The position numbers were made by a program, and so were the translations under genes. From a virus, in IMG/VR virus record IMGVR_UViG_3300023174_000001, positions 71,070 to 135,069 of that record: 64,000 bases of DNA; one strand, given 5' to 3'. The notes beneath the pieces are model-generated. The model worked only from the letters and a program-made list of their open reading frames with translations. It did no database searches and was not told the DNA's origin. Shown here piece after piece: positions 31,890-59,200 of the stretch (positions within the stretch are counted from its first letter, which is position 1; every line of letters starts with the position of its first letter).

Positions 31890-32363
31890 ATGCATCAGAA
31901 ACTAGCAGAAAAGTTAGCGGTATGTTTAGGAGACACCGTTACCTATAAATTTATTGCTCACGGTTATCACTGGAATGTAAAAGGACCTGAGTTCACTCAG
32001 TTCCACGATTTCTTCCAAGAACTTTACGAGGATGCGGACTCAGCAATTGACCCGCTTGCCGAAAACATTCGCAAACTTGGGTATGACTCTCCGTTCACAT
32101 TAGAAGATTTTTCTTCATTGACCTGCGTACATGTAAATCCAGTTTCTGGAGACCCGATGAAGATGGCTGAAAATCTTTACACAATCAATAAGCACCTGAA
32201 AGACTGTCTTACTGAAGCCTTTGACATTGCTAATGCTTGTAATGAGCAGGGAATTGCTAACTTCCTAGCAGAGCGTATTGATATGCACGGTAAGTGGATT
32301 TGGCAGATTGGGACCACTATTGGTGCTGACGCAACAGTTATCACAAGAATCGAGATTAAGTAA
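31890..32363 (+). CDS. dps: Dps / ferritin-like DNA protection protein
   Basis: HGYHWNVKG..F...HDFFQELY......D..AE.IR; ERI..H.K..W. Confidence 0.92.
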   Translation: MHQKLAEKLAVCLGDTVTYKFIAHGYHWNVKGPEFTQFHDFFQELYEDADSAIDPLAENIRKLGYDSPFTLEDFSSLTCVHVNPVSGDPMKMAENLYTINKHLKDCLTEAFDIANACNEQGIANFLAERIDMHGKWIWQIGTTIGADATVITRIEIK

Positions 32364-41464: not shown

Positions 41465-44400
41465 ATGACCTACGCCTTTGGCATTTACTTTGAAGATGAT
41501 GACAACCTCGGACTGGTAGCGGCTGGTAATCGCTGGAATTCTGGCGGAAACTCTACTTTAGCCCGTCGTCTCCGTGTGGCTATGCAACGCCGTGACCGTT
41601 ATGGTCGCTGGGCTGAAATGGGTGGAGGAATCTCCTTCAAAGGTAGGTTCGGCAACACTGGAAGAGTCATGGATGCCGTTGGTCGTTATGTCGGCCCCGC
41701 TGAGCGTGAAGGCTATATGCGTGTCTATGTCACCAGCGGAAGAGGTCTTCAAACTGGTGTCTATGAAGTGCCATCAAAAGTTGCCACTGTAGCAAAGGCT
41801 CTTCTAAGTGAAGAAGCCCTAAAAGATGTCGGCGTAAACCTAGATGTCAATGGAAACCAAGTTGGCGATGTTTTAGATAGAGATATTGAATTCTTCGCTG
41901 GAATGTTCAAGGGCAAGCCAACCGATTTTGAATTGGATATGGCTCGTGGCAAGGTTAGCCCGAAAGAGAAAAATACAATTGTAAAGGCTCGTCTAAAGGC
42001 TCCAGCCCACAAGTCATACAACATTGTTGATAAGAACGGCGTTCGTATTGACAAAGATGAAGAGCCTACTAAGCCAGATGTAAAGAAGCCAAGCAAAAAG
42101 GCTAAGCCAGCCGAAGTCTTCCCGCTACCAGACTTAGATAAAGATATAGCGGAAGAGAACCCTAAGAAATGGGCAACGCTATCTGAAGAAGAACGAGCAG
42201 CAAAACTTAAAAAAGAGCGTAGTCGTCGTGACTTTTATGTAGGTGCTAATGGCAAGCGTATTCCAGATAATAAACTAACTGACGCAGATAAAACTCCAGA
42301 GAACCGCCGTATCCGTGACTTAAAGAACCACCGTGTTCTTGACGGCAATGGTCGTCTTATAGAGTTCATTCCAGAGTATAAGCCAGAAGCAAACCCAGTG
42401 CCACAGGGCGAATTCCACCCAGTGGAAGACCCAGATGAAGGCTTTTGGAACGCCAACCAAGTAAAGCCGGGGGAAGTTCAAAAGAACCTGACTACTCCTG
42501 AAGAAGTTTACGAAGCACTATATAACGGTGGATTTGTTGAAGTACCAATAGAACTAGCACTAGCAGCGGGTGATATTGCTTATGCTGATTTGCCATTCAT
42601 AGGTAGAGACGAAAACCCTCTATTCCAGTCAAATCCTAATGACCCTAGATTTAGAGAAATTGCTAATATCCTCTCTTCTCTACCTCCAGCACAGGAAAAC
42701 AGACTAAAGCGTGCCATAAACCTAGCCCTCATGAGTGAAGAAAAAATTGATGCTCTAAAGGCTTATCTAGAAGAAAATGTTGGAGAGGCTACTGGTTTAT
42801 CCCCAGAAGCGTTTGCTGAACTGCACAAAAAATTCCGTAACCTAGGTGTCGACCTCACCAACATGCGTATCCAAGGTGTAGATGCTTTCAGCAACGATAA
42901 CCTCGGTGCTGAGCGTATTAATATGCCTCAACTTGACGCAGACGACCAAGCGGATTTCTTGGCATACTGCGACAGACTTGGTATCAACTACAAAGAAGCA
43001 ATGGCTAGACCGCAAGAACTGCACCCTATCCAAGCAGAAATGGACTTTGGGGATGTCATAAAGATTAAGAAATCTTGGCTGGACCCTGAACTTCGCAAGA
43101 GGTTTGGTATGGATGACCAGTACCTATTTGTTACTAGAGACGGTTATGTTCTAGACGGACATCACAGATGGTCATCTGCTCTTCTTGCTGAGATGGAGAG
43201 CGGTAAGCCAATCAACCTAAAGGTAATGGTTCTAGATATGGACCACGAAGATGCCTTGAAGTTTGTGAACGAGTACAACGACCATGTTGGTATCACTCGT
43301 CAAATGGTTGGCGGAAATAAGGTCGCTGACCCTAGACCTGAGGCCCCTAAAGCCGAACTACCTACAGGTCCATCTGTTGTTTCTGATGATGGCGGAATTG
43401 TTCCAAATTATGGCCCAGAAGGACCAACGCCACCTGATGGCGGGGACAATGTAGTAACTCCTAGTGGAGAAAACTTTAATAACTGGCTCGATAGAGAACT
43501 TGCCAATGTTGGCGACAGGATTATTCCAGAATTTAGCGGAAAACTAACTAACGATACCCCTAACCCAGAGAGCAGAACCAGCCCTTTCCCTGGCTCTCGC
43601 ACCGTGGTAACTAATCTTTTGGCATATAGAGACTCACTGATGTCTGCACTGAAAGAAAGTGCACTTGACGGAAACACTGAAAAATTCAAGTTTCAATTTG
43701 AAATTGCTAAAAGAGTTACAAAACTCTTAAATAAGATACACGAAAATTTTTCTAACGACAAAAAATATGGTGCCGATACCGAACTAGAACTTAGTACTAG
43801 CAATCCTGAAGAAAAACTAAAAGCAATTAGAGTTCTTCCAGAAACTATGAAGACCGAAATTGATAATAGAGGAATTAAGAGAATAAAGTCATTTAGTGCC
43901 GTAATTATTGCTAAAAACGGAAAACCTTTCTTACTAAAGTGGTCTACGCATTCTTCACAGGCTTACAGTATTAAGCCAGATGGAAGCATTAACTCTACTA
44001 ATGACGGCGGTGGAACAACTTTTGCAGAAATCCAAGACTATAACAGTGTAGTTGATGGAAAACCAGTAGCAACGATTGCCCATGTGGGTGGAGCATTTAC
44101 CGAAGATAGCCACCATGCTCTAGGCTTTGGTGGTGCCCACATTATGCTATCCCGCTGGGTTATGCATATGTTTAATGGTGGAAAACTTCAGCACAGTTCA
44201 AACTTGAGTGCTAGAGGAAACGCATACTCAAAGATGGTCTCTAGAGACATGCGTTGGAACAATAGAGCACAGGCGGACAAAGCAGTTCAAGTAAATTGTC
44301 CAAATGCGGATATTTTTAAAGTCCTCACAGACATGGGATTGGTTGACGGGGAATATATTCCAGCAACACCTGGTGCTAAGCAGAATGATAATACTCCTGG

Positions 44401-47400
44401 TGGACATGGAAGTTCCAGTGGTGGAAGAGGTTGGCTAAAGAGACTAACATTCACAAATAATCAAGGTTGGTCTGACAATGCTTCTGTTTTAAGAAGTTTT
44501 AGCATAAACGGCATTGTTTCAGATTTAGAGCAAAGATTTAATGCCAAGACCGATGAAGAGAAACAGGCAGCACTAGATGCTATGCCACCTATTTTTAGAG
44601 ATTTCTTTGCTGGAGATAAGTCTAGAAATATTGAATTCCGTTTCGAGGATTTTGATGTTCAGTATAATTTGCTTGCTACTGCTTATAGCGATGGAATGAA
44701 GCAGCAGGAAGCCGTAGATTTCTTAAACACATTAATTGATGGATTGCCTCAACTTGACGCTGCCTTTGGGTTAAACAGAGCACATACAGACTCAATTCAA
44801 AAATTAAAGCGTCTAAGAGACGCTATAGCGGCTCGTCAATGGGACCAAGCCAACAATAACTACAACAGACCTAAGCCTTTCAATACAAACAGCATTCGTG
44901 CTATTCAATCCCCATTTGCTGGACACTTCAAGTTCAATGAATGGCAACTTCCTAGAGATGTAAATAGGATTATGAATGACCTGCCGTTTGACCCAAGACC
45001 AAGAAGCAACGGAGAACATGCTGACTGGACAGAAGACCCTCAACGACTACAAGAGTTGTACGGACCTGAAACTCTTCTCGCTTCTCTTAGAGACTCTATT
45101 CTCAGGAATAAAGGTAAAATTGCCAATCTTCCAGCACTATCTACTGGTGCTGATGGTGTAAACAATGTAAATCCAACTGCTGTCTACAAAGCATTGGAAA
45201 ACCACGGATACGATACTGAACTTATCCTTGCTGGAATTTACGATGAACTAAATGGCAACACCGCTAACACAGATGCTTTGACTGCAAAAAGAAGTGAACT
45301 TGGAAACCTACAAGGCATCATTGAGCAGTTGGCAAGAGAAGTTGGACAATTAGACGAGCCAGTAGAATTTTCTAGCATTGGTGGAGACTATGACCCAGCA
45401 AGCCGTATTCTTCAATCAGACATTGTAAAGCGTGGAGATGTCGGAGAAGTTCCTACATCACTTCAACTAAAACCGCTTGCCTTAGACAATGAATCTTACG
45501 ATTATGTAAACGCTAACGGCGGTAGAAGTCAAGTAATGCGAAATGCATCCTATGTTCCGCAAATACCTCTTTCTAAATTTTACATTGATGGGGTAGCAGA
45601 TAATCCAAAGATTATTGCTAGAAACTTTAACCCAACTGGTCTAAGGAACGCTCTAATTGACGCTGTTTCAAACAACAGAAACTCAGTCAAACTAAGATTC
45701 CCTAATGGAAATGAACTAATTGTTGAAAACGCTGCTATTAGAGATGCTCTACAACTTCAGGGTTATGACATCAACAGAGTTTTGTCAGAACAGACAACCA
45801 TAAGACCAGCAATAAAACAGATTTCTAGTATTCAAGATAGAGATGATGTTGACGGCAATGGCACTAGAGTTACTGATTTTGGTATTGGAACAGACATAGC
45901 AAATGGTCCTGGATTTAGACAAAAGAGAAATGATGGAACAGGCGAGTTTGATTTCTCATTAGTAGATTTAACTAATCCAGCAAGAAATACAGTCGCTCAA
46001 ATAGCAAAAATAAAGAAAAATGCAGACGGTAAATTTGAAGTTTGGGTGGCAAAAAGGGCAGATGGAAAAACTGACGAGTTTACTGGAGAGCCTAACGGTG
46101 TATATGAAAATGTACAAAATGCTCTTTTTGATGTAAAAAACCACATTCAAAAAGAACTAAATATTAATGCCAACACAAACCTTCTAGGAACCGCTTCAAA
46201 ACCTGTTGCTAGTCCTGACTATTCTATTGTCGGCGGTCAAGATGACGAGTCTCAAATTACCGTCGGAGATATGGTCCTAACTAAGCCAGACGGGGCTGAA
46301 TCTTTTGTAGTTTACACAAACGGAGACAGTGCAAGAGGATTTAGAAGAATACCTGGCTCTGAAGATGGTGTCAGTACTGGAACGGTATACACTCAGACCG
46401 TTCAATCAACTGGAGACATATATTCAGAATCATTCAAGCATGTCTCTAAAGATGTAGATGGCCAACTCAAAGAAAAGCAAGTATTTGCTATTACAAAGAT
46501 TGGCGATAAGTTCCAACTAACCACCAACAGGTTTGGTAGTGACAACTTAAGTCCAGATAGGACAGAGACTCTAATTTTTGGTAGTTATGATGATGCCAAA
46601 GATTTTGCAGTTAGAGGACTAATTAACGGCAAAATTGGTTTTCAAACTGACCAAGTTAAAAACTTCCCTAACCTAACAACAACTAGAGAAGTAACTAAGC
46701 CATCAGCAGATTTGCCAAATCAACAGATTACTCAGGATGCTGCCTCTATTCAGATAGTTACACCTGCAACTATGACTAGCGGAGTAGTTGGAGAACTGAA
46801 AGTAACTGTCCAAAAAGGTGCCCACCCTGCTTGGAGAAATGGTGTTGTAAACACCCCTTATGTTTTTGCTGAGTTTAGTTTCTCTCCACCAGCATCACAA
46901 GGCGGAGAGCCAGCATACATAACTGGTAAAATTATTAGAACTGGTCGCTCAGAGTGGCAAGTAAAGATGACTGGAAACAGTCCTAGTTTTAATGAAAATG
47001 GTCAATATATTAGCGGTTCTCTCAGGGAGGGCACCAATTACGAATCTACTAAGCAAGATGCCCTAGACAGACTAAAAAAGAAACTTGATGCTGCTTTTGG
47101 TATAGAAGAATCCCAAAGAGACCGAGGAGAGTCTGTTCTACCTAGAATTAGACTTGTTGATAAGGCCGTTGAACTTGAGCCTAAACCAGAACCTCCTGCC
47201 TCGGATGACCCTAGTCTGCTTGCAGATGGTGTCTTTGATGAATTCTTGGCAGTTAGAAACACTCCTCTTGATATTCCAGACGCTACAAGTCGTGGGTACA
47301 TGGGTCTGGGGATGTCTGACTCTGCGAGATTTGAAACTCCAGATGGTAAAAACTACAAGGTCAAAGATGAGGGCAGTAGAAAAGCAGCATCCGAGTCATT

Positions 47401-50400
47401 AAACCACGCTCTACATTTGGCCTTGGGAATTCCAGCAACTCCCGCTAGAACTGGAAAAGCACCTGGCACAAGAAACCAAGTCAACCTAATTGACCCGTTC
47501 GAACCAGACATTGTTCCAGGTCGAGTAAATGGTAATATGAATGGTCAAGAACTATTTACTAATGCCGAGTTCAACAAGCCAGAAAACCAGCAAGCAATTG
47601 CCGACATACAAGAGGGTCTAATAATTGACTACTGGCTTGGAAATGTTGACTTTGTACTAAATTCAGGAAACTCTTTTGTCGCCGTGAGAGATGGCGTAAG
47701 AAGAGGTGTTCGTTGCGATGTTGGTGGAGGAATGTTCTCCGCAATTGGACAACAGGTAATTAATGACTGGACTGACCCAAACGAAGCGGTAAGAGAGTTT
47801 AAGCACTATAACAACGATTTCATGGGCAATAATGATACAGTCGCTGGCTCAACCACCGATGGGCACATGAGACGAGGCCTCACTAAAGAAAAGTATGTTG
47901 AGATGGGCAGAAGAACCCTTCTCCGCCTAACAGACGATAAAATCGACAGATTAGTTGATGCCCACATCACCGACCCTACCGATAACGCTAGAGCAAAACA
48001 GGCTCTAAAGGCTAGACGCGTAGCAATGCTTAATTATCTAGGCATTGACCCTAATGAGGCACCACCAACAGGTGGACAGCCTAGGCCGACATACGCAATT
48101 TTACCGAATGCTCAGTTGGCCAGAGACGGCTATGAGTTTGTCGGAATCAATGTTGAAGGTAAAAAAATTGTAAGAACTAGGGGAGCCGTTCTATCCGACG
48201 GAGTCTTTGTTGCCCCGATTGAGAATATTCCAGAAGCAGTCAGAGAAAACATAATTAATGGAATTTTTGTTCCAGAAAATCTACCTTTCCACGCCATAGA
48301 TAGAAATGACCAAAGTAAATCTATCGTCATTGACGGTGCTGGATTGGTTAGACCTGCTTCATCTATTGCTGCTGGATACACATCTCTAATTATTAGAAAG
48401 AAACTTCCTAACGGGCAGTACGGATATTTGATTGCTAGACCTGGCAACACTGAACTAACTAAACCACATGGTAAGGCAAACGCAAATAAGTTTGGTCCAA
48501 TCATTCATGAAAACACACCTGGCCAACCTCCAAAAAATGCAAAAGATATTGTAAATGAGATTTTTGGAACAGGCAATGCTGGAATTGGCGACAGAGTTAT
48601 TGCTGAAAAAGAGATTCTTTTAGATATTCCTGGTTTACTTGGGAAGCAAAGAGTTTTAGTTGCCGATATTGATGACTTTGACTTCTCTGCTACTAGAGAT
48701 TTTGCAATGGCTAATGGTCAAATTGGGCCATCAAAATTTGCAACAGGTGCGAACTTTATAAAAGGATACCCACACACTCCTATTCTTTCTCAGGCTCCTG
48801 GCGATGGCGATAGAATTGCAAACAAACTTAGAGAGTGGGAACAAAACTGGCATTCTACTGCTAGCAATGTTCCTACTGAATCAGACAACAGAAGCGGTGG
48901 AGACGACGGAAGCGGTCCATCAAATCCTGGCGGTGGCGATGGCGGAGGTGGAACTAGCGGACCTCCTCCATCTGGCTCGTCAGATGATTGGAAGACTCAC
49001 TCTAGAATTTCTTTGGTATCTAGAAGACCTGGATTCCCAGAAACAATAACACGACTCAACATTTTTAGTAGAGCAGACGGTGCTCTTGCTGTAGATGATG
49101 TGAGTTCAGGAAACACAATTGGCCATATCAAGCCACTTGAGCACGGCCACTGGGTAGCAACATTTATGCCTGGCCTTATCGGAGATAATAATAACGGTAA
49201 TGCTGCTAAGGCGTTCTTTGCAAATAAAAAAGATGCTGAGAACTGGCTAACTAAAAAAATCTATGACCTAAGTTATGCTGACCCTAGAGGTGGAGAAAGA
49301 ATTGCCACCACGGTTGGCGTTTCAGGAGATAGGTCTTATGACGAAAATGCTCCTCAACCTCCTTTTGTTGTAGAAAGAGGATTCCTAAACCCAACCACTC
49401 CTGCTCAAACTCGTTTGGCTAAGAGACTTGTCAAGGGTAAGAAGGCAACTCCTGAAGAAAGGGCTATGTACAAAGCCATTCTTTCTCAGAAAAACCCTAC
49501 CGTTGGCGATGTTGGTTGGATAATTGGTCAACTTAGAGATAGAGAAGATAGGGATTCAGCAGAACTAGCAGCATCAAAGCAAGCACAAAACGATGCTGTA
49601 AATGCTGGCAATCCTATTAGAGAGTCTTCTTTGGATAACGGCGGAGATGGCTCTAACAGAGAGCACACTGTTCTCGCTAAAAACCTACAAGTTGGTCAAA
49701 GAATTCTTGGCAATATCAATGCTGATGTTGTATTCACCGTTCCAGGTGAAAACGACACTATCAATATTGGTGTAGTTGGAGATGACGGAAAACTTAAGGT
49801 TTACAAGGTCAATAAAAATAGAAATCTTACTTGTATTTTTGGAAGACAGCCACAAGTTGCCCCAGCACAGCAAGCAACTCCGCATCCAGCCGTCGCTGCT
49901 CGTGCAAATAGAAGCAGACTAATTCAAGAAGCAATTAGAACAGCGTATCCAAATTCTCACGCTCTTCCTAACGGCGACTTAGTTATTGGTCAAAGAGACC
50001 ACCGTCAAGCCGATGGTAGAGTATTCCGCTACGAAGCAGTGGTCCACAAACTGAAGTCAGATGAGTTTGTTGGTTATGTGAGAAGACAACTTCTAGATGC
50101 TAACGGAAACCCTACTGGAACTGGCGAGGCTGCTTACCTAACTAAGCCAGCCCACTCTCCAAGAGCATTGAAGAACAGATTGTCAGGTAGAGTTATTCCT
50201 GCTCTTATGGCAAACAACCCAGCAAACGGGTTCAACCAGCCAAATGGTGACCGTCAGAACGAAGCAATTGACCCAGCAACTGGATTGCCACTACCAGAGA
50301 GCCTAGTATCTCAAACACGATTTGTTGGCAATACTGGAATTGAAAGCACTGGACACCCTGCCAAAGACGCTCTTATTGAGTATGTTCAAACACTTGTTGC

Positions 50401-53400
50401 TAGAGGAGTTTCTGCTCCAGAGATTATTAACCAAGTAGTTGGGCCTAACCAGCGTCTATTCTCTCGTCAGCAGATGGATGACATTATCGAGCGTCTTGAG
50501 GCTAACCGTCTATATCCTGGTGTGAATGTTATTCCTTATGTATCTAAGGACAACAAGACCATTGTTCGTGTTGGAGACCGTGTAACTCACTATGACGCAT
50601 TCGGTCAGCCAAAACTGATGGCTAACGGTCAACCTAGAACTGGTACTGTAACTGAACGCAGACCATACACGCTAAACATGAAACCAAATGGTGAGTATGA
50701 ATACACCGACCAAGTTTATGTACAGTGGGATGACACACCAAGACCGCATCAGGCTGCTCCACGCCGTTTAGAAGTAAACAGAAGAGCAGATGGAAGTGAC
50801 CCAGTTCCAGCGGTACAAAATGCCAACGAAGAAGGCACACCTCCTTACATTGAAACCATGCCATTACAACCAAAGCGTGTTGTCCCTAGACCAGTTGCCC
50901 GCAGACCAGTAGCACCCCCTCCTGCTGACTCACAAGACATTGCAAATATTGGAAATGTAAGAATCCTAGTAGTTCCTAACGGACCTACATATAGTGTTGA
51001 CCGTGGAGATGAGTACACTCAGTTCCAAGATGTAACCGACGCTGGAAACTACTCTGGTATTTATGTAATAAAGGTTAGCAACGGCGGTAAATGGCTTGTG
51101 AAAGAGAGAGATGGAGTCGATGTACAAGTTCTAGCCGAGTTTGATGACAGAAATCAAGCCGAAGCACACGCTATGGACCTCATCAATCAAAATGGTGGAA
51201 GGCAGACTCAGGAGAGGCTAGAGACTAGGGCCGATGCTCCTATCGCTGAAAGAGGGACACTTATCAATGCCAACAATGTTGGTGAATTTGAAAGAGTAGT
51301 AGACCCTAGCGGAATGGGTCACACTATTCTGCGTGGTGCCAATATGACTAGGTTTGACAAAGACCAAGGCGATGGAATACCTAATGCTATTTATGTCCAG
51401 CAAAGAGACGATGGCAAGTGGCATGTCATCCAACAAATGCCAGACGGAAATGGTGGATACGACACTAGAAGTGTTGCTATCAACGATGACAGAAATTTGA
51501 TGGAAGCAGTTGCTACAAATATCGTTGCTGGCAATACTACTGCCGAAGCCTACATGCAAATGTGGGGAAATCCAAACCAGCCAAACGCTCCAGAAAACAA
51601 CGATAGTGCCATCACCCCATTGATAGAGCGATTCAACGCTAATAGAATGCCATTTGGTTTCTCTCTTGTTAGAGGTGCTGATTTAGGTGGAGAATTTGGT
51701 ACCAACATAATGCTTAAGGATACTCAAGCGGATGCTGCTGGTCTAAACTCCATAAAAGGTCGTATCACTCAAAACGAAAACGGTAATTATGTAGTTCAAA
51801 AGTGGGGCGGTAACGGCGGATTTGTAGGCAGAGAAGAATATCCAGGTATTATGACTGCTCTAGAAGTTCTTAGTATGCACGCTCTGTCTGTAAGACTTGA
51901 AAGAGATGGAAATAACTCTCCAGAATCTAGTAAGCCTTCGTCTAGCCCATCTTCTCCTAATGGCGGAGATGGCGGTGGAGTTCCACCTACCAACCCACCT
52001 GCTGGTGGAGATGGCGGAGCATCAGATGGTCCGGGACTAGACTTGAATATGGGTAGATGGAGACAAGGCCAGCCACCTCAGGGAGTCGGCCGCGTTGACG
52101 GTGTAGTTCCAAAGGTAAACACATTCTGGGATGATGACCAGCCACCTACTCGGTACGATGTTGTCAGAGATGAAAACCGTACCAAGTTTATTGGTCGTGC
52201 TGGAGACAACCCTGGTGCAGAAGCGTTTGTTTATGTTGAAAAAACTCCGCTCGGCAACTGGAGAATGGTTGACCCTAGAGAAAGAGGCGATGCTAGATAC
52301 AGTGCCGAGTATGGTGACCGTAATGTCGCAGAAGCAATTGCTATCAACAAGATGGCTGGTCGTGAAGACCTAAACCAAGAAGTTCTTGGTCAGCCTGACT
52401 CGAATGTTGCTCCTGCTCCTCAGACGCTACCTAACGGTATAGTCGAAAGTCGTAGCGAATCTATGACTCTATATGTTAACCGAGATGGTAATCTCAATGA
52501 AATTCAGGTAGTCGCTCTTGGTGGCGGAAAGGCTTGGCAAGTAAATAGAAATGTGCCTGGCCAAGCCACAGAAGGATTGTCATACCACGGGACCCGTGAG
52601 GATGCTGAAAGAGAGGCTAGAGAAAGAATTGCTCAAGAAAATGCTCCTGCCAACAATGCTCCAGCGGGACCTGCTGCCACAGACAGCGAATCCCCTACTA
52701 GCGGAAAATCTGACTCTGGACTGAGACTTGGCGAGTTCCGTGCTCCAGACGGAATGATTGAAGAGATGAATGCCGACGGAACCTACTCTACCGATTTCCG
52801 CATTGGCGACAAAACTTTCCAAAGAGTTAGAACTCCAAGTAGTGCTTCTTATTACTACAACGGTTTTGAAATTGCTACTACTGAAAAGAATTCAGATGGA
52901 ACTTTCAATGTAAAAACCATTTGGGCAAAAGATGCTAGCGATTTTGTAGTAGCAAGAGATGAAGAAAATGCATTACTAAATGCTCAGTCTCAAATTTGGG
53001 CAGCAACTCAAGACGGCAGAGTTAGCAAAATAGATGGTGACCAAGGCCCTAGCGATGGTGGCAACCCACCTGCTGGACCTTCGGGTGGAGATGATGGTAA
53101 CGGTGGTAACGGCGGAAACGGTGGAACCCCACCTACCAATAATCCGCCAGCGGGACCTGCTCCAGCAGCACCTACTCCAAGCCAGCCAAGCAGACAGCCT
53201 CGCACAAGAAAGCCTGTTGTAAATGAAGTTCAACCTGGCGATAGATATGTTAGATACAACTCAAGGCGTAACGATAAGCCTGGAGGCGAAAGAACTCACT
53301 GGGATATCTACGATAAAAGAACTGGCAAGGTAATTGCTAGGGCAACTGAAAAAGAAGTAGCGGATGACATTGCTGCTGGAGTTAGGGACAAGAATGGAAA

Positions 53401-54148
53401 CCCTATAAACTTTGACACTCCATCTGGCGGTCAAAGTGGCAATGCTCCAGCAACTCCACAAGCAAATGCCCCAACTGCTGGTCAGCCTACTGGAACTAGA
53501 ACTAACCTTGGCGATGGGATATTCTCAGTTCACAATGAAAATGAGGAATACGGTATTGCGATTAGAGGTGCTGACGGTAAGTGGTCAGCAAGAGTCCACG
53601 AAAACGCTGTGGATGCCATAAGCAACAATAACCCAATCTCTACTGGAACTTATGACACCCCAGAAGAAGCCGAAGCCGCTATTCGTAAAGCAATCGCTGA
53701 GCGTCAAGCCCAGCGTAAAGCAGCCAACACTCTTCAGTGGCAGTCTGGTTCAGACGGCAAGCAGTACTTGGGTCTAGACGGAGTTGCTGGAGTAGATGCT
53801 GAAAACTCACCTGTTTATGGCGTAAGCCCTAGTCCTTTCGGGGGTTGGGTAATGGCTCGCTGGGACTCAAAGGCTGCTAAAGATGCTGGAGCACCACCAA
53901 ACTCAATCGTGGCTCAGCCAGATGAAGAGGCTGCCAAGAATGATGCCCTTCAGCAAATAAATGATTTCTTGCGTAATTTGACTGGACAAAACCCACCATT
54001 AGTAAATGATGAAAATCCAACCACTCCAACTAATAGAGCGGAGCAATTGCCACCCGGTACCACGATACAGGACCAAGTTGATGCTGGGTTAACTACCCCG
54101 TTCAACCCAAATGCTGATTTGCCGGGAAGCAACCCCCCAAAAGCATAA
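41465..54148 (+). CDS. Giant polyvalent protein (4227 aa): ParB-like, GNAT-like, kinase-like and degenerate Nudix-like domains plus repeats
   Basis: RINMPQ..LHPIQ..GYVLDGHHRW (~42900-43300); GGAFTEDSHHALGFG..LQHSSNLSARG (~44060-44240); YKVK..ASESL..DYWLGNVD..GN..CDVGG (~47300-48040); AGGAG RBS. Confidence 0.8.
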   Translation: MTYAFGIYFEDDDNLGLVAAGNRWNSGGNSTLARRLRVAMQRRDRYGRWAEMGGGISFKGRFGNTGRVMDAVGRYVGPAEREGYMRVYVTSGRGLQTGVYEVPSKVATVAKALLSEEALKDVGVNLDVNGNQVGDVLDRDIEFFAGMFKGKPTDFELDMARGKVSPKEKNTIVKARLKAPAHKSYNIVDKNGVRIDKDEEPTKPDVKKPSKKAKPAEVFPLPDLDKDIAEENPKKWATLSEEERAAKLKKERSRRDFYVGANGKRIPDNKLTDADKTPENRRIRDLKNHRVLDGNGRLIEFIPEYKPEANPVPQGEFHPVEDPDEGFWNANQVKPGEVQKNLTTPEEVYEALYNGGFVEVPIELALAAGDIAYADLPFIGRDENPLFQSNPNDPRFREIANILSSLPPAQENRLKRAINLALMSEEKIDALKAYLEENVGEATGLSPEAFAELHKKFRNLGVDLTNMRIQGVDAFSNDNLGAERINMPQLDADDQADFLAYCDRLGINYKEAMARPQELHPIQAEMDFGDVIKIKKSWLDPELRKRFGMDDQYLFVTRDGYVLDGHHRWSSALLAEMESGKPINLKVMVLDMDHEDALKFVNEYNDHVGITRQMVGGNKVADPRPEAPKAELPTGPSVVSDDGGIVPNYGPEGPTPPDGGDNVVTPSGENFNNWLDRELANVGDRIIPEFSGKLTNDTPNPESRTSPFPGSRTVVTNLLAYRDSLMSALKESALDGNTEKFKFQFEIAKRVTKLLNKIHENFSNDKKYGADTELELSTSNPEEKLKAIRVLPETMKTEIDNRGIKRIKSFSAVIIAKNGKPFLLKWSTHSSQAYSIKPDGSINSTNDGGGTTFAEIQDYNSVVDGKPVATIAHVGGAFTEDSHHALGFGGAHIMLSRWVMHMFNGGKLQHSSNLSARGNAYSKMVSRDMRWNNRAQADKAVQVNCPNADIFKVLTDMGLVDGEYIPATPGAKQNDNTPGGHGSSSGGRGWLKRLTFTNNQGWSDNASVLRSFSINGIVSDLEQRFNAKTDEEKQAALDAMPPIFRDFFAGDKSRNIEFRFEDFDVQYNLLATAYSDGMKQQEAVDFLNTLIDGLPQLDAAFGLNRAHTDSIQKLKRLRDAIAARQWDQANNNYNRPKPFNTNSIRAIQSPFAGHFKFNEWQLPRDVNRIMNDLPFDPRPRSNGEHADWTEDPQRLQELYGPETLLASLRDSILRNKGKIANLPALSTGADGVNNVNPTAVYKALENHGYDTELILAGIYDELNGNTANTDALTAKRSELGNLQGIIEQLAREVGQLDEPVEFSSIGGDYDPASRILQSDIVKRGDVGEVPTSLQLKPLALDNESYDYVNANGGRSQVMRNASYVPQIPLSKFYIDGVADNPKIIARNFNPTGLRNALIDAVSNNRNSVKLRFPNGNELIVENAAIRDALQLQGYDINRVLSEQTTIRPAIKQISSIQDRDDVDGNGTRVTDFGIGTDIANGPGFRQKRNDGTGEFDFSLVDLTNPARNTVAQIAKIKKNADGKFEVWVAKRADGKTDEFTGEPNGVYENVQNALFDVKNHIQKELNINANTNLLGTASKPVASPDYSIVGGQDDESQITVGDMVLTKPDGAESFVVYTNGDSARGFRRIPGSEDGVSTGTVYTQTVQSTGDIYSESFKHVSKDVDGQLKEKQVFAITKIGDKFQLTTNRFGSDNLSPDRTETLIFGSYDDAKDFAVRGLINGKIGFQTDQVKNFPNLTTTREVTKPSADLPNQQITQDAASIQIVTPATMTSGVVGELKVTVQKGAHPAWRNGVVNTPYVFAEFSFSPPASQGGEPAYITGKIIRTGRSEWQVKMTGNSPSFNENGQYISGSLREGTNYESTKQDALDRLKKKLDAAFGIEESQRDRGESVLPRIRLVDKAVELEPKPEPPASDDPSLLADGVFDEFLAVRNTPLDIPDATSRGYMGLGMSDSARFETPDGKNYKVKDEGSRKAASESLNHALHLALGIPATPARTGKAPGTRNQVNLIDPFEPDIVPGRVNGNMNGQELFTNAEFNKPENQQAIADIQEGLIIDYWLGNVDFVLNSGNSFVAVRDGVRRGVRCDVGGGMFSAIGQQVINDWTDPNEAVREFKHYNNDFMGNNDTVAGSTTDGHMRRGLTKEKYVEMGRRTLLRLTDDKIDRLVDAHITDPTDNARAKQALKARRVAMLNYLGIDPNEAPPTGGQPRPTYAILPNAQLARDGYEFVGINVEGKKIVRTRGAVLSDGVFVAPIENIPEAVRENIINGIFVPENLPFHAIDRNDQSKSIVIDGAGLVRPASSIAAGYTSLIIRKKLPNGQYGYLIARPGNTELTKPHGKANANKFGPIIHENTPGQPPKNAKDIVNEIFGTGNAGIGDRVIAEKEILLDIPGLLGKQRVLVADIDDFDFSATRDFAMANGQIGPSKFATGANFIKGYPHTPILSQAPGDGDRIANKLREWEQNWHSTASNVPTESDNRSGGDDGSGPSNPGGGDGGGGTSGPPPSGSSDDWKTHSRISLVSRRPGFPETITRLNIFSRADGALAVDDVSSGNTIGHIKPLEHGHWVATFMPGLIGDNNNGNAAKAFFANKKDAENWLTKKIYDLSYADPRGGERIATTVGVSGDRSYDENAPQPPFVVERGFLNPTTPAQTRLAKRLVKGKKATPEERAMYKAILSQKNPTVGDVGWIIGQLRDREDRDSAELAASKQAQNDAVNAGNPIRESSLDNGGDGSNREHTVLAKNLQVGQRILGNINADVVFTVPGENDTINIGVVGDDGKLKVYKVNKNRNLTCIFGRQPQVAPAQQATPHPAVAARANRSRLIQEAIRTAYPNSHALPNGDLVIGQRDHRQADGRVFRYEAVVHKLKSDEFVGYVRRQLLDANGNPTGTGEAAYLTKPAHSPRALKNRLSGRVIPALMANNPANGFNQPNGDRQNEAIDPATGLPLPESLVSQTRFVGNTGIESTGHPAKDALIEYVQTLVARGVSAPEIINQVVGPNQRLFSRQQMDDIIERLEANRLYPGVNVIPYVSKDNKTIVRVGDRVTHYDAFGQPKLMANGQPRTGTVTERRPYTLNMKPNGEYEYTDQVYVQWDDTPRPHQAAPRRLEVNRRADGSDPVPAVQNANEEGTPPYIETMPLQPKRVVPRPVARRPVAPPPADSQDIANIGNVRILVVPNGPTYSVDRGDEYTQFQDVTDAGNYSGIYVIKVSNGGKWLVKERDGVDVQVLAEFDDRNQAEAHAMDLINQNGGRQTQERLETRADAPIAERGTLINANNVGEFERVVDPSGMGHTILRGANMTRFDKDQGDGIPNAIYVQQRDDGKWHVIQQMPDGNGGYDTRSVAINDDRNLMEAVATNIVAGNTTAEAYMQMWGNPNQPNAPENNDSAITPLIERFNANRMPFGFSLVRGADLGGEFGTNIMLKDTQADAAGLNSIKGRITQNENGNYVVQKWGGNGGFVGREEYPGIMTALEVLSMHALSVRLERDGNNSPESSKPSSSPSSPNGGDGGGVPPTNPPAGGDGGASDGPGLDLNMGRWRQGQPPQGVGRVDGVVPKVNTFWDDDQPPTRYDVVRDENRTKFIGRAGDNPGAEAFVYVEKTPLGNWRMVDPRERGDARYSAEYGDRNVAEAIAINKMAGREDLNQEVLGQPDSNVAPAPQTLPNGIVESRSESMTLYVNRDGNLNEIQVVALGGGKAWQVNRNVPGQATEGLSYHGTREDAEREARERIAQENAPANNAPAGPAATDSESPTSGKSDSGLRLGEFRAPDGMIEEMNADGTYSTDFRIGDKTFQRVRTPSSASYYYNGFEIATTEKNSDGTFNVKTIWAKDASDFVVARDEENALLNAQSQIWAATQDGRVSKIDGDQGPSDGGNPPAGPSGGDDGNGGNGGNGGTPPTNNPPAGPAPAAPTPSQPSRQPRTRKPVVNEVQPGDRYVRYNSRRNDKPGGERTHWDIYDKRTGKVIARATEKEVADDIAAGVRDKNGNPINFDTPSGGQSGNAPATPQANAPTAGQPTGTRTNLGDGIFSVHNENEEYGIAIRGADGKWSARVHENAVDAISNNNPISTGTYDTPEEAEAAIRKAIAERQAQRKAANTLQWQSGSDGKQYLGLDGVAGVDAENSPVYGVSPSPFGGWVMARWDSKAAKDAGAPPNSIVAQPDEEAAKNDALQQINDFLRNLTGQNPPLVNDENPTTPTNRAEQLPPGTTIQDQVDAGLTTPFNPNADLPGSNPPKA

Positions 54149-55284
54149 GCCCTAGCGGTGGTGGTCTAGGGATAAACTACTCTCCAATAGGGCTAAGCGA
54201 TGAAAGAAATAATAGGTTAGTTGCACAAGCCAACGGTCTAGATTTCAATCAATTAAGGGCTTTAATTGCCTCTGCTGCGATAGATTCAAATACTCCGCCC
54301 GGAGAAAGACGCAGGTTCCCTGACCCGTCTTTAGACCACGACAACGCAAAATTAAAAAGATTAGCGATTGACCAAGCAATTGCTGACGGTCTACCAGTAG
54401 AAGAAGCATTTGAGTATGGTTCGGCAGTTGCCAAGAGAGCACTAAATTATGCTAGAAGACTTGCCAGCCTCGCTAATTTTGAAAAAAGACTTAATGCCGA
54501 GCGGGAAAACAATCCAGAGGGCGGGCAACTGTCTATACGCCAAAGGGCTGGAGAAGGATTAATTAAACATACCCTTCAAAATGGCCAAGTTGCCGTAGGT
54601 CTACAAACTAGAGCCCTGCTTAGCATAATAAATGGCGATGGTCAGTACCGAACTCTTTTTGAGTCAACTGGTGTTGTGAACCCTGGTGTTATGGTTATGC
54701 CCATGGCAAGAGCCAAAAATGAATTAATTAATTTTGGTATCCCTGTTGACGCTGACCCAACTACTAGACCAGCGTTTGGCTACCTAATTTCTGATGGATT
54801 TGAAAATGAAGATTGGTTTAAGGCACTCAGTCCAAAAGAGCAAGAAAAATATAAAGCACTTGTTTCTATAGATGCTATTGGTAGGGTCGGTCAACCGTCT
54901 GCCCGTGGTCTTGGTTCGGTTGCTTTCGGAGACGCTAGAATTGTATTAAAGAGAAGTGTAATGGATAGAACCACCTACGCAGTAGATGGCACTTTTACCA
55001 CAGGAACTTTCCCTAGACCAGTGAATGCTGAGGCAACTAGGGAATCTATGGCTTTGGCAGGAGCATACGGTAGAGACCAAGGTATGACTAGGGGAATGGG
55101 CGAGGGACTCATAAATGAAATCAACGGTTCTATAGACCCTAGTCTTGCCTTCATAGAGGCCCAAGTTCACGGAAGATTCACCTTAGATGATGTAGAAGCC
55201 ATCTACACTTCAGCCGAAAAAGCACCAGAAATTGAATCAGCCCTAAGAGCAAAGGGTCTTGGAATAGAAGTTAGGGTTATCTAA
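54118..55284 (+). CDS. -1-frame extension of the 4227-aa protein carrying a DUF3626-like domain
   Basis: Frame open 54118-55284, with no ATG/GTG/TTG before 54676. DGQYRTLFESTG lies upstream of that GTG; RPAFGYL, FGDARIVLK, RTTY and IEAQVHG..L.DV follow. Confidence 0.75.
   Translation, partial: FAGKQPPKSISPSGGGLGINYSPIGLSDERNNRLVAQANGLDFNQLRALIASAAIDSNTPPGERRRFPDPSLDHDNAKLKRLAIDQAIADGLPVEEAFEYGSAVAKRALNYARRLASLANFEKRLNAERENNPEGGQLSIRQRAGEGLIKHTLQNGQVAVGLQTRALLSIINGDGQYRTLFESTGVVNPGVMVMPMARAKNELINFGIPVDADPTTRPAFGYLISDGFENEDWFKALSPKEQEKYKALVSIDAIGRVGQPSARGLGSVAFGDARIVLKRSVMDRTTYAVDGTFTTGTFPRPVNAEATRESMALAGAYGRDQGMTRGMGEGLINEINGSIDPSLAFIEAQVHGRFTLDDVEAIYTSAEKAPEIESALRAKGLGIEVRVI
54136..54171 (+). 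other. Candidate programmed -1 ribosomal frameshift signal
   Basis: In-frame X XXY YYZ heptamer C CCA AAA (54136-54142), 7-nt spacer, hairpin CCCTAG(54150-55)/CTAGGG(54166-71). Confidence 0.75.
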
Positions 55285-55285
55285 T

Positions 55286-55501
55286 ATGAAAAAAGATGAT
55301 GTGCTATTAGTTTCCGATTACGGAGATGAGATTAGATTCTTGGAAGAAAAAGAAGGACAAGTCCTTGGCTACTATGTGGATGGTGTCAGTGGAGAAAAGT
55401 CGGAGCCTATGTTAGTAGAACAAATCATAATGCTTGCTGGAGATGGAAATGTTGGCTGGAAATACGCTAAATCCAGTGAAATTCCAAACACACTAACTTA
55501 A
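55286..55501 (+). CDS. Small acidic protein, candidate partner of the DUF3626 module
   Basis: Starts 1 nt after the 55284 stop. Confidence 0.7.
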   Translation: MKKDDVLLVSDYGDEIRFLEEKEGQVLGYYVDGVSGEKSEPMLVEQIIMLAGDGNVGWKYAKSSEIPNTLT

Positions 55502-55548
55502 TAATAAGATAAACTTTATTGTAGAAGTATCTATTGGAGATATAAAAT

Positions 55549-56235
55549 ATGTCGCAAAATCCTGAGTTTACGCTCAACTCAGACACGCTTGGAGTTGTCT
55601 ATAAAGACACTGGCGTTCTTGAGGGGTATGAATCTGCGGAAGCCGAAAGCGTTAGTGAGACTCACGCTATTGTCGGGGCTTACTATGAGCCAACTGGAGA
55701 CTACAAAGGTTTGTATTTTGTATTACCTGAGGGCGAACTAAAGTACTTTGACATTGAAGCAGTGAAACTGGGAAATCAGACTAGCGGTGCTTATATAACT
55801 TTTGAAGCAGATAACAAGTTTTGGCTAATTAGGGATTTAGAAGAAACTGATGGTACTTGGGTCTCTAAATACAAGATGGAACTGCCAGTAGAGGTACTGA
55901 AGCAACTTATAGTTGGGCGGTCTAAACCAGCCCTAACTAAATATCTTGGCGTAAATATTCCAGACACTATTCCAGAATTTGAAAGTTTGACTGCTTACTT
56001 CTCTGACAAATCTCCTAGTGTTTTTGCTTTGAATTACATGTCTTCTCAAGGTATCTACACTCGTCTAGATTACGAATGGGAAAAAAGCGAAGTATCTTTT
56101 GACTATTACGAAGATATGGCAGTCGCTGAAATAGAAGCAAGTAAAGCAAGTGAATTGCTAGAAAAATTTGATGACGCAGACGGGATTTTTCCAGTAAAGG
56201 ATATTCTAAAAACTTATGAAGTTGGTGGTAAATAA
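55549..56235 (+). CDS. Acidic hypothetical head-operon protein
   Basis: GGAG RBS; TAATG-coupled to the protease gene. Confidence 0.75.
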   Translation: MSQNPEFTLNSDTLGVVYKDTGVLEGYESAEAESVSETHAIVGAYYEPTGDYKGLYFVLPEGELKYFDIEAVKLGNQTSGAYITFEADNKFWLIRDLEETDGTWVSKYKMELPVEVLKQLIVGRSKPALTKYLGVNIPDTIPEFESLTAYFSDKSPSVFALNYMSSQGIYTRLDYEWEKSEVSFDYYEDMAVAEIEASKASELLEKFDDADGIFPVKDILKTYEVGGK

Positions 56236-59200
56236 TGCAGTCAAAACTTTTAGGTATAGACCAAGATGGCGTTGCTTACTACGGTAATTTCGAAAAATAC
56301 ATTGCTATCAATACAAATTTCAATGTTGTAGTTGAGCACGGCAAAACTGAAGATATTGCGGAAAAAGTAAAATCTTTAGGTGCCCCAGTTCCTTTACCAA
56401 TTGAAACTATAGAACTTGCCATCAATGCTTTATCTGCTACAAAAGAAAATTTTGAAACTCTATTGGCATCTGCTCGTTTATACACTATACCAGCGGGTGT
56501 TAAGGCAGAAGCAAAAAAGGCTCTTGAGTGGCATAAAGAGCATCACCGTGGTGGGACTCCTGTTGGTATGAATACTGCTCGTACCCTTGCTCGTGGTGGA
56601 CAGATTGGTATAGAGAAAGTTCGCCACATCGCAAAGTACTTCCCCCGTCACGAAGTAGATAAAAGGGGTAAAGGCTGGGAGCCAGGCGAAGACAACTTCC
56701 CAAGCAACGGAAGAATTGCCTGGGCACTTTGGGGTGGCGATGCTGCTTGGCGTTGGGCTAAAGCAATTGTTGAGCGTGAGAATGCTAAGGCTCTAAGAGC
56801 AGACGCTGGATACTCAGAGATTGTATCTGCTGATTTATCTCCAATTGAAGATGCTTTCAAAATGAATGACAGCATTGCTCCAGATTTTATGGCTCGTGTC
56901 CGCCTTGATGGTTCTGGAATTGACCGTATTTACAAAATTGATTTAGACGGTCAAGTGTATGCGTGGGATGATGGAACTTGGGATGATTTAGGTAACGCAG
57001 AAAACGGCGACATTTGGACTTATGACAAGGCTTTAGATGACCCTTATGATTTGGTTGAAAAGACTCATATCCAAATTGACCCTGAGTCAGCAATTATTAT
57101 TTGTGCTCGTCTAAACACAGAGCCTTTCAGAAATATTTCTATTGATGAAATTGATGAAGAAGAGGCTCGTATGGCAGCAGATGCTGCTGGCGAAGAAGAC
57201 TGGGACTTCATTGACGATGTAATCACCGCTGCTGGTGAAGGCATTGGGGCAACAAGTAAAGATGGAAACTACACCCCCCAAGAGCGTTCACAAAATGCTT
57301 CTAAGCAGGTAAGAGATGGTGGCGGAAGATTTGCTACTCAGGGTAAGAATGTTTCAGTAAAGGGTCAAGGTAATGGAATTATTACTAATGTTGACCAAAA
57401 CTCAGGCAATGTAACTGTAAAAATGGAAAATGGCCAGTCTGTGGTTGTTTCCGCTAAAGACACTAAACAAACAGAAGGTGAAGATATTTCTTCTCCTGTA
57501 GGTCCTTACAATAATGCTGACTTACAAGGTCCATTAGATGTTTCTGGAATTCTAGGCGAGCCACGCACTCCGCAGAATATGCCAAAGGCAACTCTTCCAG
57601 AAACTTATCCACCAATTAAAAAAGAAGACCTACACAAACTTCTCGCTGATTTCCCTGCTTGGGTTAGAGAACAGCGTGCTCAGTACAACGGAAATGCAAA
57701 ACAATCAAATCCAAATTTTGCTAATGAAACTGAATTTGACAACTCGGCTAAAGATTCTGAAAAAGAAATAGAAGATAAAACTAAGGCTGAAGATGATAAA
57801 CCTACTGGCAAGAAGATGGGTCGCCCACCTAAGCCAAAGGTAGACCCTAACTCGTATCACCCGTTGCTTCGTCAATGGGAGAGAAGCATAAATCCTGAGA
57901 CTCCAGATGTATCAGACGGAGACCTTGACGATAATTGGGCCAGACCAATTATGGCTGCTGGGGATAAAGCAAAGGGTTCGGATGTTCAGCCAGTGTATTT
58001 GGCTATCGTTTCTCCAGACGACCCTCGTGCTGTACTTGAGTGTGTATCTGTAGTACCAGCAAGTGCTACATCTAACCAGCCTATGACTTATGTTCGTAGA
58101 AACAAGAAGTGGGAGAGAGACCCTAAGTTCCTAGAAGACCTAAAGTCTGCCACTCCACCACCTGTTGTCCCACTAAAGCCAGAAGTATTGAATGATGTAC
58201 TTATTCAAATTGACGGTCTAACTGCCAGCATTGGCTTTAGTACTGACTTAGAACTTATGGTTCTTTTTGGTCCAAGAGTAGAAATTATTGAACAATTCAG
58301 TAATTTAGAAACACTTTACGCTGCTGGTGGTTTGGACCGAAACAGGGGCAAGGCAGAAAAACTTCGTAAATACTGGACAGTTGGCCGTGGTGGTCGTCGC
58401 AAGATTCGTTGGAACACTGGAGGAGATTGGACACGCTGTGTTCGTTATCTATCTAAGTACCTAGGTCCTCGTGCCAAGGGCTACTGTGCTTTACGCCACA
58501 AGGAAGTTACTGGTCTATGGACTGGCGATAAAGAACACATGCAGCGTTATGGTGGTAGGCGTGACAAGGGAAGAAACTTCTTTAGCAACGATGTAATAAA
58601 CTCCACTGAAAAAATTGCTGAAATTTCATATCTAACTGCTCAAAGAAATGACCTATCTAACAAGATGGCTTTGATAGCGTCTTCAATTCCTAGGCTTGTG
58701 CAGTCTATGCCACCTAAGAAATTAGTAGATGGTGAAAAATTCTTTATTCCTTTAGTAATCCCAGAGCAGGTTGAATCTGGAGATGGTAGAAAATTCAAAA
58801 GGGATGCTATCACTTGGCGTGAATTACCACTTCCACTTATGTGGCAGATGAAAACTAGCAGTGGGCACGATGGCTCTGTAGTAGTTGGTCGCATTGACCA
58901 TATTGAAAGAGTTGATGGTGGAGTTGGAAATTGCCACGGCGTATTTGATACTAGCCCACACGCTTTAGAAGTAGTTCGACTAATCAAAAACGGTTTTATT
59001 CGTGGTACTTCCGCAGATATGGATAAGTTTGAGGCTACTGAAGAAAAGCCTGAAACCGAAAACGCAGAACTAGAAAAACCAAGTATTGATAAAAAAGAGG
59101 TTGGCAAGGACAAACTTGTAATTAGTAAAGGTCGAATTATGGCTGTTACTATCGTGCCAAAACCAGCATTCCAAGAATGCAAGATTTTCCTAACGGAAGA

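Follow-up and report, generated by a model that had tools for sequence, protein, structure and literature searches.

Two lines of work on phages meet at the locus described here. Phages A2 and T3 gain extensions of structural proteins by -1 ribosomal frameshifting (PMC5009743), and the frameshift of the tail assembly chaperone is the standard phage case (PMC10885494, section 19). On the other side, MuF or portal proteins can bear fused ADP-ribosyltransferases (ARTs) and Nudix domains as head-packaged effectors (PMC9503650), and the polyvalent proteins, very large, built of many modules and encoded beside portal and terminase genes, have ARTs as their commonest protein-modifying modules and have been proposed to be packaged and injected (PMC5512222). 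The two lines touch in the account of the PRFect software, where VIP2 ARTs and MuF-like genes figure among adjacent pairs predicted to be joined by a frameshift in SEA-PHAGES genomes, such pairs occurring elsewhere as a single fusion gene (PMC10885494, section 19). I consider here a stretch of viral DNA of 64,000 nucleotides (nt), called the window, which is the final 64 kb (positions 71,070 to 135,069) of IMG/VR record IMGVR_UViG_3300023174_000001, itself 135,069 bp long with direct terminal repeats. At the end of a gene in the window for a protein of 4227 amino acids (aa) stands a slippery heptamer, C_CCA_AAA, and past the stop codon, in the -1 frame, lies a module resembling the effector SopF. 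On comparative evidence, programmed -1 frameshifting at this heptamer is the best reading of the locus and, I think, a likely one.

A slippery heptamer at the end of a giant gene

The giant open reading frame (ORF) occupies 41465..54148, between the portal gene and a gene for a protease-containing fusion, on the + strand like the other features of the slip region. It closes with AAC CCC CCA AAA GCA TAA, giving the C-terminus ...LPGSNPPKA*. The -1 frame is interrupted by TGA at 54115-54117 and then stays open from 54118 to the TAA at 55282-55284, a run of 388 codons, and both frames are open together for 31 nt (54118..54148). Within the overlap C_CCA_AAA (54136..54142) lies in register with the 0 frame, and the 0-frame stop (54146..54148) comes one codon past it. 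A slip at this point would create the junction ...GSNPPK|SISPSGGG... and a protein of 4226 + 380 = 4606 residues, its extension encoded by the 380 codons and stop of 54142..55284. A second in-register heptamer, C_CCC_CCA at 54133, precedes the first. An earlier, sequence-only reading of the window had described these frames, their overlap and the heptamer, and the letters of the ORF and its translation bear it out.

Such a heptamer is not to be expected there by chance. Only 19 of the 4228 positions of the giant ORF carry an in-register XXXYYYZ of any kind, and 10 of these are of the classical slippery kind (7 with Y = A or T and X unlike Y, and 3 runs of A). Since about 10 in-register positions fall within the overlap, roughly 0.02 slippery heptamers would be expected in it.

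The extension escapes ordinary gene calling. No ATG, GTG or TTG occurs in the -1 frame before the GTG at 54676, its codon 187, in keeping with the stretch of about 186 start-less codons that the earlier reading had described, and the list of ORFs offers only 54676..55284, an omission that reading had also pointed out. The motif it had singled out as lying ahead of the first GTG, DGQYRTLFES, does so, as residues 174-183 of the -1 frame.

Conservation of the frame and of the slip site

Contigs from four sequencing runs, belonging to four different studies and chosen to exclude the possible source run, were aligned on 53800-54600. In all four (4/4) a contig bridges 54136-54148, with 0 gaps; the lengths of the C6 and A4 runs, which the earlier reading had wanted confirmed in reads, and hence the frame, are reproduced with no insertion or deletion. 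Two of the bridging contigs, of depth 168 and 41, are strain variants that differ by 7 substitutions in 801 nt, and two strains have an A>G at 54195 that leaves the amino acid of the -1 frame unchanged.

A far more diverged comparison is afforded by a metagenome locus, L002, in which the module (and the product of the extension) is 73% identical to that of the window at a synonymous divergence (dS, substitutions per synonymous site) of about 0.87. Its giant ends AAT CCC CCA AAA GCG TAA, with the identical heptamer in the same register, the stop arranged alike, and 11 nt, CCCCCAAAAGC, matching the window letter for letter, while the codons flanking the heptamer have changed synonymously (AGC>AGT, AAC>AAT and GCA>GCG). 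A 6-nt difference downstream of the slip site is an in-frame insertion or deletion. The -1 frame of L002 is closed by a TAA at 6013-6015, two codons ahead of the heptamer, so a shift in that lineage is confined to the 16 nt of overlap that hold the heptamer.

The start-less part of the module is, by its pattern of substitution, coding and under purifying selection. Between the window and L002 its 174 codons show dN (substitutions per nonsynonymous site) of 0.208 and dS of 0.871, a ratio of 0.24, and its substitutions fall 42/28/65 at codon positions 1/2/3. The module after the first GTG gives dN 0.153 and dS 0.791, and the last 200 codons of the giant give dN 0.081 and dS 0.598. The start-less region is also conserved in homologues fused to a NUDIX domain. 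For the eight closest homologues in the public protein collection, which are 298-374 aa long and share 70-93% identity, 7 different starts have been called, scattered in the way that gene callers treat an ORF without a real start.

What of relatives without the module? In L006, a 135,336-bp IMG/VR genome to which L005 and L007 are reported as identical matches, the giant stops at the homologous position, with LPGTNTPNQ* in place of LPGSNPPKA*, and the equivalent of the slip site reads ACG CCT AAC, which is not slippery. In L004 the giant ends AAT CCT AAT GCC TAG, not slippery either. Both lack the module and also the 71-aa gene that follows it in the window, and the next gene, of 228 aa, stands directly beside the giant. 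Among the C-termini of 18 giant homologues, the window's included, NPPKA occurs 6 times, FNPNA 3, NTPNQ 2, NTPTE 2, PPWLA 2 and PPT[QAN] 3; P0176 has the NPPKA end despite a tail otherwise hard to align. In the DNA that was read, the NPPKA end goes with the module and the FNPNA and NTPNQ ends without it. IMG/VR scans with P0173 and P0170, aimed at the sequence following other giant C-termini, gave no match.

One distant orthologue carries what the frameshift would produce. P0042 (4179 aa) is collinear with the giant (32% identity over 683 columns, E 2e-67, and 29% over 832, E 6e-55) and its C-terminal part, residues 3835-4175, is the module fused in frame (E 5e-12). More widely, the module profile has 512 matches at E <= 0.001, and 22 of the 150 listed exceed 2000 aa. 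A protein search for longer forms of 680-2000 aa found none, weak evidence inasmuch as forms above 2000 aa lay outside its range. Neither the module profile nor a degenerate VAQANGLDF pattern had a match in scans of IMG/VR, and the profile had none among GTDB genomes. Against the phage collection, a DNA search with 52500-56300 gave no match, and tblastn of the module gave a single weak one, at 26% identity, in DSL-LC01.

Every comparative test that was run thus agrees with the core of the sequence-only reading, a -1 slip at C_CCA_AAA that would append the module, including the conservation of the heptamer, kept in the diverged L002.

The linker and the module

Disorder is predicted for residues 1-26 of the -1 frame, which contain SGGGLGINYSP, in which the motif LGINYSP (54166..54186) follows the Gly-rich stretch. 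The motif resembles GGTLPINYGP, within a neighboring giant of 2823 aa, and DDGGIVPNYGP, within the 4227-aa giant itself. A pattern chosen post hoc, [LIV]-x-[ILVP]-N-[YN]-[GSA]-P, matches 6 times when the window is translated in six frames, where shuffles give a mean of 0.033; 5 lie inside the two giants (4 of them in the 2823-aa giant) and 1 after the slip site. To judge from these repeats, the region following the slip fits better as a linker joining modules in a polyprotein than as the start of a free-standing protein. The motif was not found in distant module-bearing giants and is specific to the window's lineage.

The module proper (54199..55281, residues 28-388) consists of a helical N-domain followed by an ART core. 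An AlphaFold2 model from 68 sequences has a mean predicted local distance difference test (pLDDT) of 85.3 and a predicted template modelling score (pTM) of 0.85; confident folding begins at residue 28, and helices and a strand are encoded upstream of the first GTG. In a Foldseek search SopF is the top match (E 3.3e-5) and DarT the second. VIA aligns SopF with Z 13.4 and a root-mean-square deviation of 4.9 over 229 residues, spanning model residues 18-388 and including the helical N-domain; it gives DarT Z 12.1 (core), Tpt1 9.1, OspC3/CopC 7-8, CteC about 6 and pertussis toxin S1 4.8. The profile A4, built on the same number of sequences (68), detects SopF among the PDB sequences (7dn8_C, E 2.1e-7; 7dn9_A, E 1.5e-5), and a narrower profile, A1, found no significant match there.

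Pfam does not recognize the module directly: no family matched at E <= 0.1, the gathering score of PF12294 was not reached, and Pfam, PHROGs and NCBIfam gave no useful family for the module, the 71-aa gene or the 228-aa gene. Its relatives are more telling. In a set of 24 proteins (the window module, 21 distant full-length single-stretch matches and 2 closer proteins), Pfam found DUF3626 in 9/24 at E <= 0.001 and Phage_Mu_F in 6/24. Scanned singly, 9 of 10 proteins matched DUF3626 at E <= 0.01 and 3 scored above 27 bits, most falling below the gathering score, and P0014 and P0098 have ADPrib_exo_Tox together with DUF3626. SopF belongs to the NAD-dependent ADP-ribosyltransferases and has an I-Y-E triad (PMC10333799), and DUF3626 covers its residues 178-338 (PMC6682159). 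By profile and by predicted fold, the module falls within the SopF/DUF3626 branch of the ART fold as a divergent member of putative activity; the DUF3626-like identity that the earlier reading had assigned is upheld through relatives, profile search and fold. DarT, a DNA ADP-ribosyltransferase, matches the core nearly as well as SopF does, and the substrate may be DNA as readily as protein.

A candidate for the catalytic residue is Glu347 (codon 55156..55158), in the motif IEAQVHGRF. It is invariant in alignments A1 and A3 and nearly so in A4, and the Glu of IEAQVHG aligns with that of SopF YIEAHIHG, a position occupied by Asp in the chain of the NAD complex. That substitution, together with the I-Y-E triad (PMC10333799), marks Glu347 as the putative catalytic residue.

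P0010-P0012 (591-595 aa) carry the module, at about 41% identity, C-terminal to a NUDIX domain and joined to it by a linker rich in Pro, Glu and Ala. Such fusions fit the published Nudix fusions to phage head proteins (PMC9503650). In DSL-LC01 (L001, OQ999401) the only homologue, at 14284-15684, is a free-standing gene of 466 aa annotated 'cytoplasmic protein', 26% identical over residues 148-362. The portal gene immediately precedes it, and a 3289-aa giant is encoded downstream.

A predicted 71-aa partner

Immediately after the module comes the 71-aa gene (55286..55501), 79% identical in L002 and absent together with the module from L004 and L006. The sequence-only reading had proposed it as the partner of the extension, and that view gains from the complex predictions: the 71-aa protein with module residues 27-388 scores 0.69, the best of three controls 0.00. 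The mark used for such scores is reached by 58/80 solved complexes and by 2/110 mismatched pairs. The runs share at least 52% of their contacts, with a pLDDT of at least 76 for the 71-aa partner, and among the residues of the confident interface are those best conserved across the family (160-163, 177-183, R198, 219-222, 267-271 and E347). The prediction supports binding of the module by the 71-aa protein, which is likely to be of the immunity or inhibitor type. Scores for the 71-aa protein in the protein atlas reach at most 0.83, leads at most.

A model of the locus

I propose that some of the ribosomes translating the giant head-region gene would slip back one base at C_CCA_AAA, the tRNA-Pro in the P site re-pairing with CCC and the tRNA-Lys in the A site with AAA. 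Ribosomes that do not slip would terminate two codons on and leave the 4227-aa protein, while those that do would continue for 380 codons and make a protein of about 4606 aa, whose extension would consist of the disordered, Gly-rich INYSP linker and then the SopF/DUF3626-like domain with its predicted ADP-ribosyltransferase fold. The giant may be packed into the capsid and injected, considering the position of its gene and what has been proposed for polyvalent proteins, and the module would then transfer ADP-ribose to a target in the host. The 71-aa protein is predicted to cover the conserved cleft of the module, as an immunity protein or inhibitor might. Module and 71-aa gene would together form an accessory cassette, kept by some related phages and absent from others. 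That ribosomes actually shift here, at some frequency, I infer from the comparisons above; that the shift serves to set a sub-stoichiometric dose of the effector, as the earlier reading had it, can only be surmised.

What might stimulate the shift? A predicted extended stem-loop (54148..54194) begins 5 nt past the heptamer, with AGCCCUA at 54148-54 pairing with UAGGGCU at 54188-94. Its folding energy is -21.9 kcal/mol (z -2.19), and a similar outer stem in L002 has -14.9 kcal/mol (z -1.22), a comparison of two diverged sequences. The earlier reading had proposed a different structure, a 6-bp hairpin. The complementary arms of this hairpin, CCCTAG (54150-55) and CTAGGG (54166-71), are there in the letters, but the minimum-energy fold uses another stem, and the 3' arm sits in the 6-nt stretch missing from L002; I have dropped this hairpin as a frameshift stimulator. 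Possible stimulators are the stem-loop from 54148, the adjacent stop codon and an upstream stretch resembling a Shine-Dalgarno (SD) sequence.

This last, GGGAAG at 54123-54128 in the window and AGGGAG at 6007-6012 in L002, lies 6 nt upstream of the heptamer; L006, without the module, has CCCGGAACA at that position. An internal SD sequence stimulates the dnaX frameshift. The likeness is that of an SD sequence within the gene upstream of the slip, and the difference is a shorter spacing here.

The slip site also coincides with a repeated word. The 10-mer AAAGCATAAG occurs 13 times in the window, on both strands and mostly in the early or accessory region, where 0.21 copies are expected: at 54140-54149, 1048, 1301, 2322, 6893, 9859, 10826, 10902, 11853, 13320, 13436, 13803 and 31305. 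The copy at 54140-54149 takes in the AAA of the heptamer, the codon after it and the stop codon TAA, with G at one position in L002. The flanks have little in common beyond a preceding A or G-rich stretch. The copy at the slip site could be a regulatory site or could be chance. The degenerate form AAAGCRTAAG, with one copy per fetched locus and none in 1 of 10, is uninformative. A scan of 53500-56400 for promoters and terminators gave counts near shuffle expectation and none between the giant's stop and the module.

A larger idea is that the slip site serves as a plug-in adapter: a mobile effector-immunity cassette would be docked behind the stop of the giant, and the heptamer would serve both to express the effector and to set the number of effector-bearing copies per capsid. 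I offer it tentatively and rather doubt it. In its boldest version, AAAGCATAAG might be a site at which some factor of the phage adjusts the shift in the course of infection.

Alternative explanations

Suppose instead that the module is a protein on its own, begun at a non-canonical start (ATA at 54145, 54172 or 54187) or by termination and reinitiation at GC-AUA-A/UAA. P0002 (MNYSP...) and P0003 (MGVNYSP...) are called with a start at the very beginning of the module, at the window's ATA 54172 or two codons before it, and for this reason independent initiation may occur in some lineages; a weak purine-rich GGTGGTGG lies upstream of that ATA, the homologue in DSL-LC01 stands free behind the portal gene, and short homologues are numerous. 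It is much to ask, however, of a region from 54118 to about 54199, which the fold needs and which offers ATA only, none with a good SD sequence at a proper spacing, when the confident genes of this phage use AGGAG, GGAG or AAGGA plus ATG, GTG or TTG. L002 has GTA for ATA at the stop overlap, and its ATA before NYSP comes 1 nt after GGTGG, hence the spacing is not conserved. A separate protein would also leave unexplained why the heptamer is conserved, why module-less relatives have lost the slippery codons and why the linker is of polyprotein type. I regard it as unlikely. The other ways of doing without a ribosomal slip place the event in nucleic acid or in the past. Fusion might come about through a subpopulation of genomes with an extra C or A, or through RNA polymerase stuttering on the C6 and A4 that adjoin at the junction, since minority variants are invisible in contigs and transcriptional slippage is a known route to trans-frame products (PMC5009743). 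The corresponding run in L002 is only C5A4, and none of the four runs, each bridged, has a contig with an insertion or deletion at the site. Productive slippage by RNA polymerase usually requires longer runs of A or T. This explanation is distinctly unlikely.

Frameshifting has likewise to be set against the view that nothing is made from the module at all, an ancestral in-frame fusion like that of P0042 having lost 1 nt and its descendant remaining silent. Such a history would accord with the in-frame fusion in that distant orthologue and with the complete loss of the module in some relatives. A silent remnant would not be expected to keep dN/dS at 0.19-0.24 across the module at dS of about 0.8-0.9, with no stops and with its one indel in frame, nor to preserve the frame offset in so diverged a locus as L002, to remain intact in 8 homologue clusters at 70-93% identity, or to retain a conserved (79%) partner gene. 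I have dropped the pseudogene, a highly improbable reading given purifying selection over the whole module and a frame offset kept in L002. Finally, the junction lies inside a homopolymer run, where a sequencing or assembly error might have broken one continuous ORF. Independent contigs from four studies, at depths up to 168x, bridge the slip site without a gap and with the same run lengths, so an error is very unlikely, and with the identical frame relation in L002 it becomes scarcely credible and is dropped as well. No fused close relative was seen in a representative search, in which only two matches fell below 1e-30 (358 and 591 aa), nor in the search for longer forms of 680-2000 aa, which is weak evidence on this point.

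Several observations weigh against programmed frameshifting and should be placed together. Besides the called starts of P0002 and P0003 and the purine-rich stretch before ATA 54172, the downstream structure is only modestly better than shuffles, and the hairpin of the sequence-only reading is not conserved. The co-occurrence of slip site and module comes from 2 lineages with both and 2 with neither, and the module-bearing DNA compared amounts to one diverged pair, L002 and the window, and some strains almost identical to one another. Rare variants are lost from Logan contigs, and a minority with one extra base in C6/A4 may exist.

The phage and the surrounding genes

The major head protein of the window matches 40 phage records, every one of a phage infecting actinobacteria (Gordonia 17, Microbacterium 10, Arthrobacter 10, Streptomyces 2 and Actinomycetia 1), the nearest being DSL-LC01 at 62%. 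Nearly all the runs holding the stretch are lake or other freshwater metagenomes; among the runs listed there is no RNA run. The virus is, going by its head protein and its habitat, a freshwater phage related to phages of actinobacteria.

Its head-morphogenesis block begins with the large terminase (25937), the portal (30060), the 2823-aa giant (32363) and a 102-aa gene, proceeds with the 4227-aa giant (41465-54148), the -1-frame region, the 71-aa gene (55286) and the 228-aa gene, and ends with a 1620-aa protease-containing fusion (56235) and the major head protein (61246). At E <= 0.01 the 4227-aa giant matches no Pfam family, the MuF domain included, and its sole PHROGs match is phrog_2859 (function unassigned), at residues 456-606. 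The 1620-aa ORF (56235-61097) matches the PHROGs annotations portal protein, head maturation protease and virion structural protein at residues 843-1291 and phrog_2859 at residues 84-183; because phrog_2859 matches both, it and the 4227-aa giant share an uncharacterised domain. The 2823-aa giant (32363-40834) has a weak match to a DRAT-type ADP-ribosyltransferase at residues 1619-1686 (E 6e-4, below the cut-off) and is probably a second multi-effector protein.

The ends of the cassette offer a glimpse of how it may move. In the window, 55480-55510, the end of the 71-aa gene and the letters following it (CCAAACACACTAACTTAATAATAAGATAAAC), resembles the end of the giant in L006 at 15305-15335 (ACAAACACGCCTAACCAATAATGAGATAAAC), and L004 retains short remnants resembling TAGCGGT and AAACACACTAA. 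It looks as though the cassette was inserted or deleted by recombination between short similar sequences. In a lake run, X3, one contig (record 3) is identical and represents the module-bearing strain, and another (record 4, at window positions 53807-53995) leaves the window sequence after 53995 for that of the module-less L004 type, with a loose end ACTGCTCCTAATGGAAATTCTTCAGAAAGT; X3 thus holds both the module-bearing and the module-less form in one sample.

Significance and comparison with known systems

Should the shift be real, the enzymatic end of such giant phage proteins is being missed systematically in gene calling. All the close homologues in the public protein collection, 8/8, are called as truncated stand-alone ORFs, with seven arbitrary starts. 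The locus would then represent a new use of frameshifting by phages, to dose an injected enzyme that modifies the host and not to decorate a structure, and it would supply a natural example of accessory effector cassettes being attached to and removed from a conserved virion protein. It would also bring a compact effector-inhibitor pair of the little-studied DUF3626 family into the setting of a bacterial virus; SopF is, to my knowledge, the only characterised member of that family. These matters should be of interest to those who study recoding, conflict between phage and host, and the practice of annotation.

Frameshift extensions of phage structural proteins are already known, and so are head-packaged ARTs fused to MuF or polyvalent proteins. 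Within the literature searched, what appears to be new is a conserved slip site that would attach a SopF-like module, accompanied by a predicted inhibitor gene, to a protein of more than 4000 aa, and the disappearance of that site where the cassette is absent. Among the literature matches listed for CCCAAAA frameshifting none, judged by title, concerns phage, and among those listed on ribosomal frameshifting of phage virion ADP-ribosyltransferases PRFect alone is relevant. The word 'frameshift' is absent from the main texts of PMC5512222 and PMC9503650.

With the head and tail proteins of A2 and the capsid proteins of T3 and T7 the locus would share a late gene of the structural region, a slip near the 3' end of the 0 frame and a short and a long product of one gene; A2 is said to use exactly CCCAAAA. 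There a major capsid or tail protein gains a small domain, Ig-like or of the decoration kind, whereas here a head-region protein of 4227 aa without a Pfam family would gain an enzyme-like module of 380 residues, which belongs to an accessory cassette with a predicted inhibitor gene. The tail assembly chaperone G/GT resembles the reading proposed here in its conserved -1 slip at a heptamer near the end of the upstream ORF and in its two products, made there in a fixed ratio, but the gene, its position in the genome and its role are different, and the extension there is structural, not an enzyme with an inhibitor.

SopF (7dn8, 7dn9) is the best structural match to the module, with the stretch ...YIEAQ/HIHG... 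aligned, although identity is 11-13% and the module has no direct Pfam match. SopF is a type III effector, activated by ARF GTPases and directed against the eukaryotic V-ATPase; the phage module would have another target and probably no such cofactor.

Polymorphic toxins of the MuF type (cf. PMC5576092) resemble the locus in having a variable C-terminal effector on a protein of the head module, often with a small immunity-like gene downstream, and here too the effector varies, being present in the window and L002 and absent at the same locus in L004 and L006. It differs from the MuF and ART-MuF fusions in having no detectable MuF domain, in carrying its effector in another frame, and in the kind of ART, which is of the SopF/DUF3626 kind here and Alt/VIP2 or N4-ART in the fusions. 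Polyvalent proteins have their modules joined in one frame (PMC5512222), where here the joining would be by frameshift. The PRFect cases come closest in reasoning, for the argument from fusion genes made there is the logic applied here with P0042. They are unverified predictions by software, scored there as 'false positives', for another ART family and for MuF proteins of ordinary size; section 19 of that paper contains no analysis of conservation, selection or cassettes, and the lists in its supplement may bear on novelty (PMC10885494). Set beside all of these, the present locus would combine the slip of the structural genes with the cargo of the head-packaged effectors.

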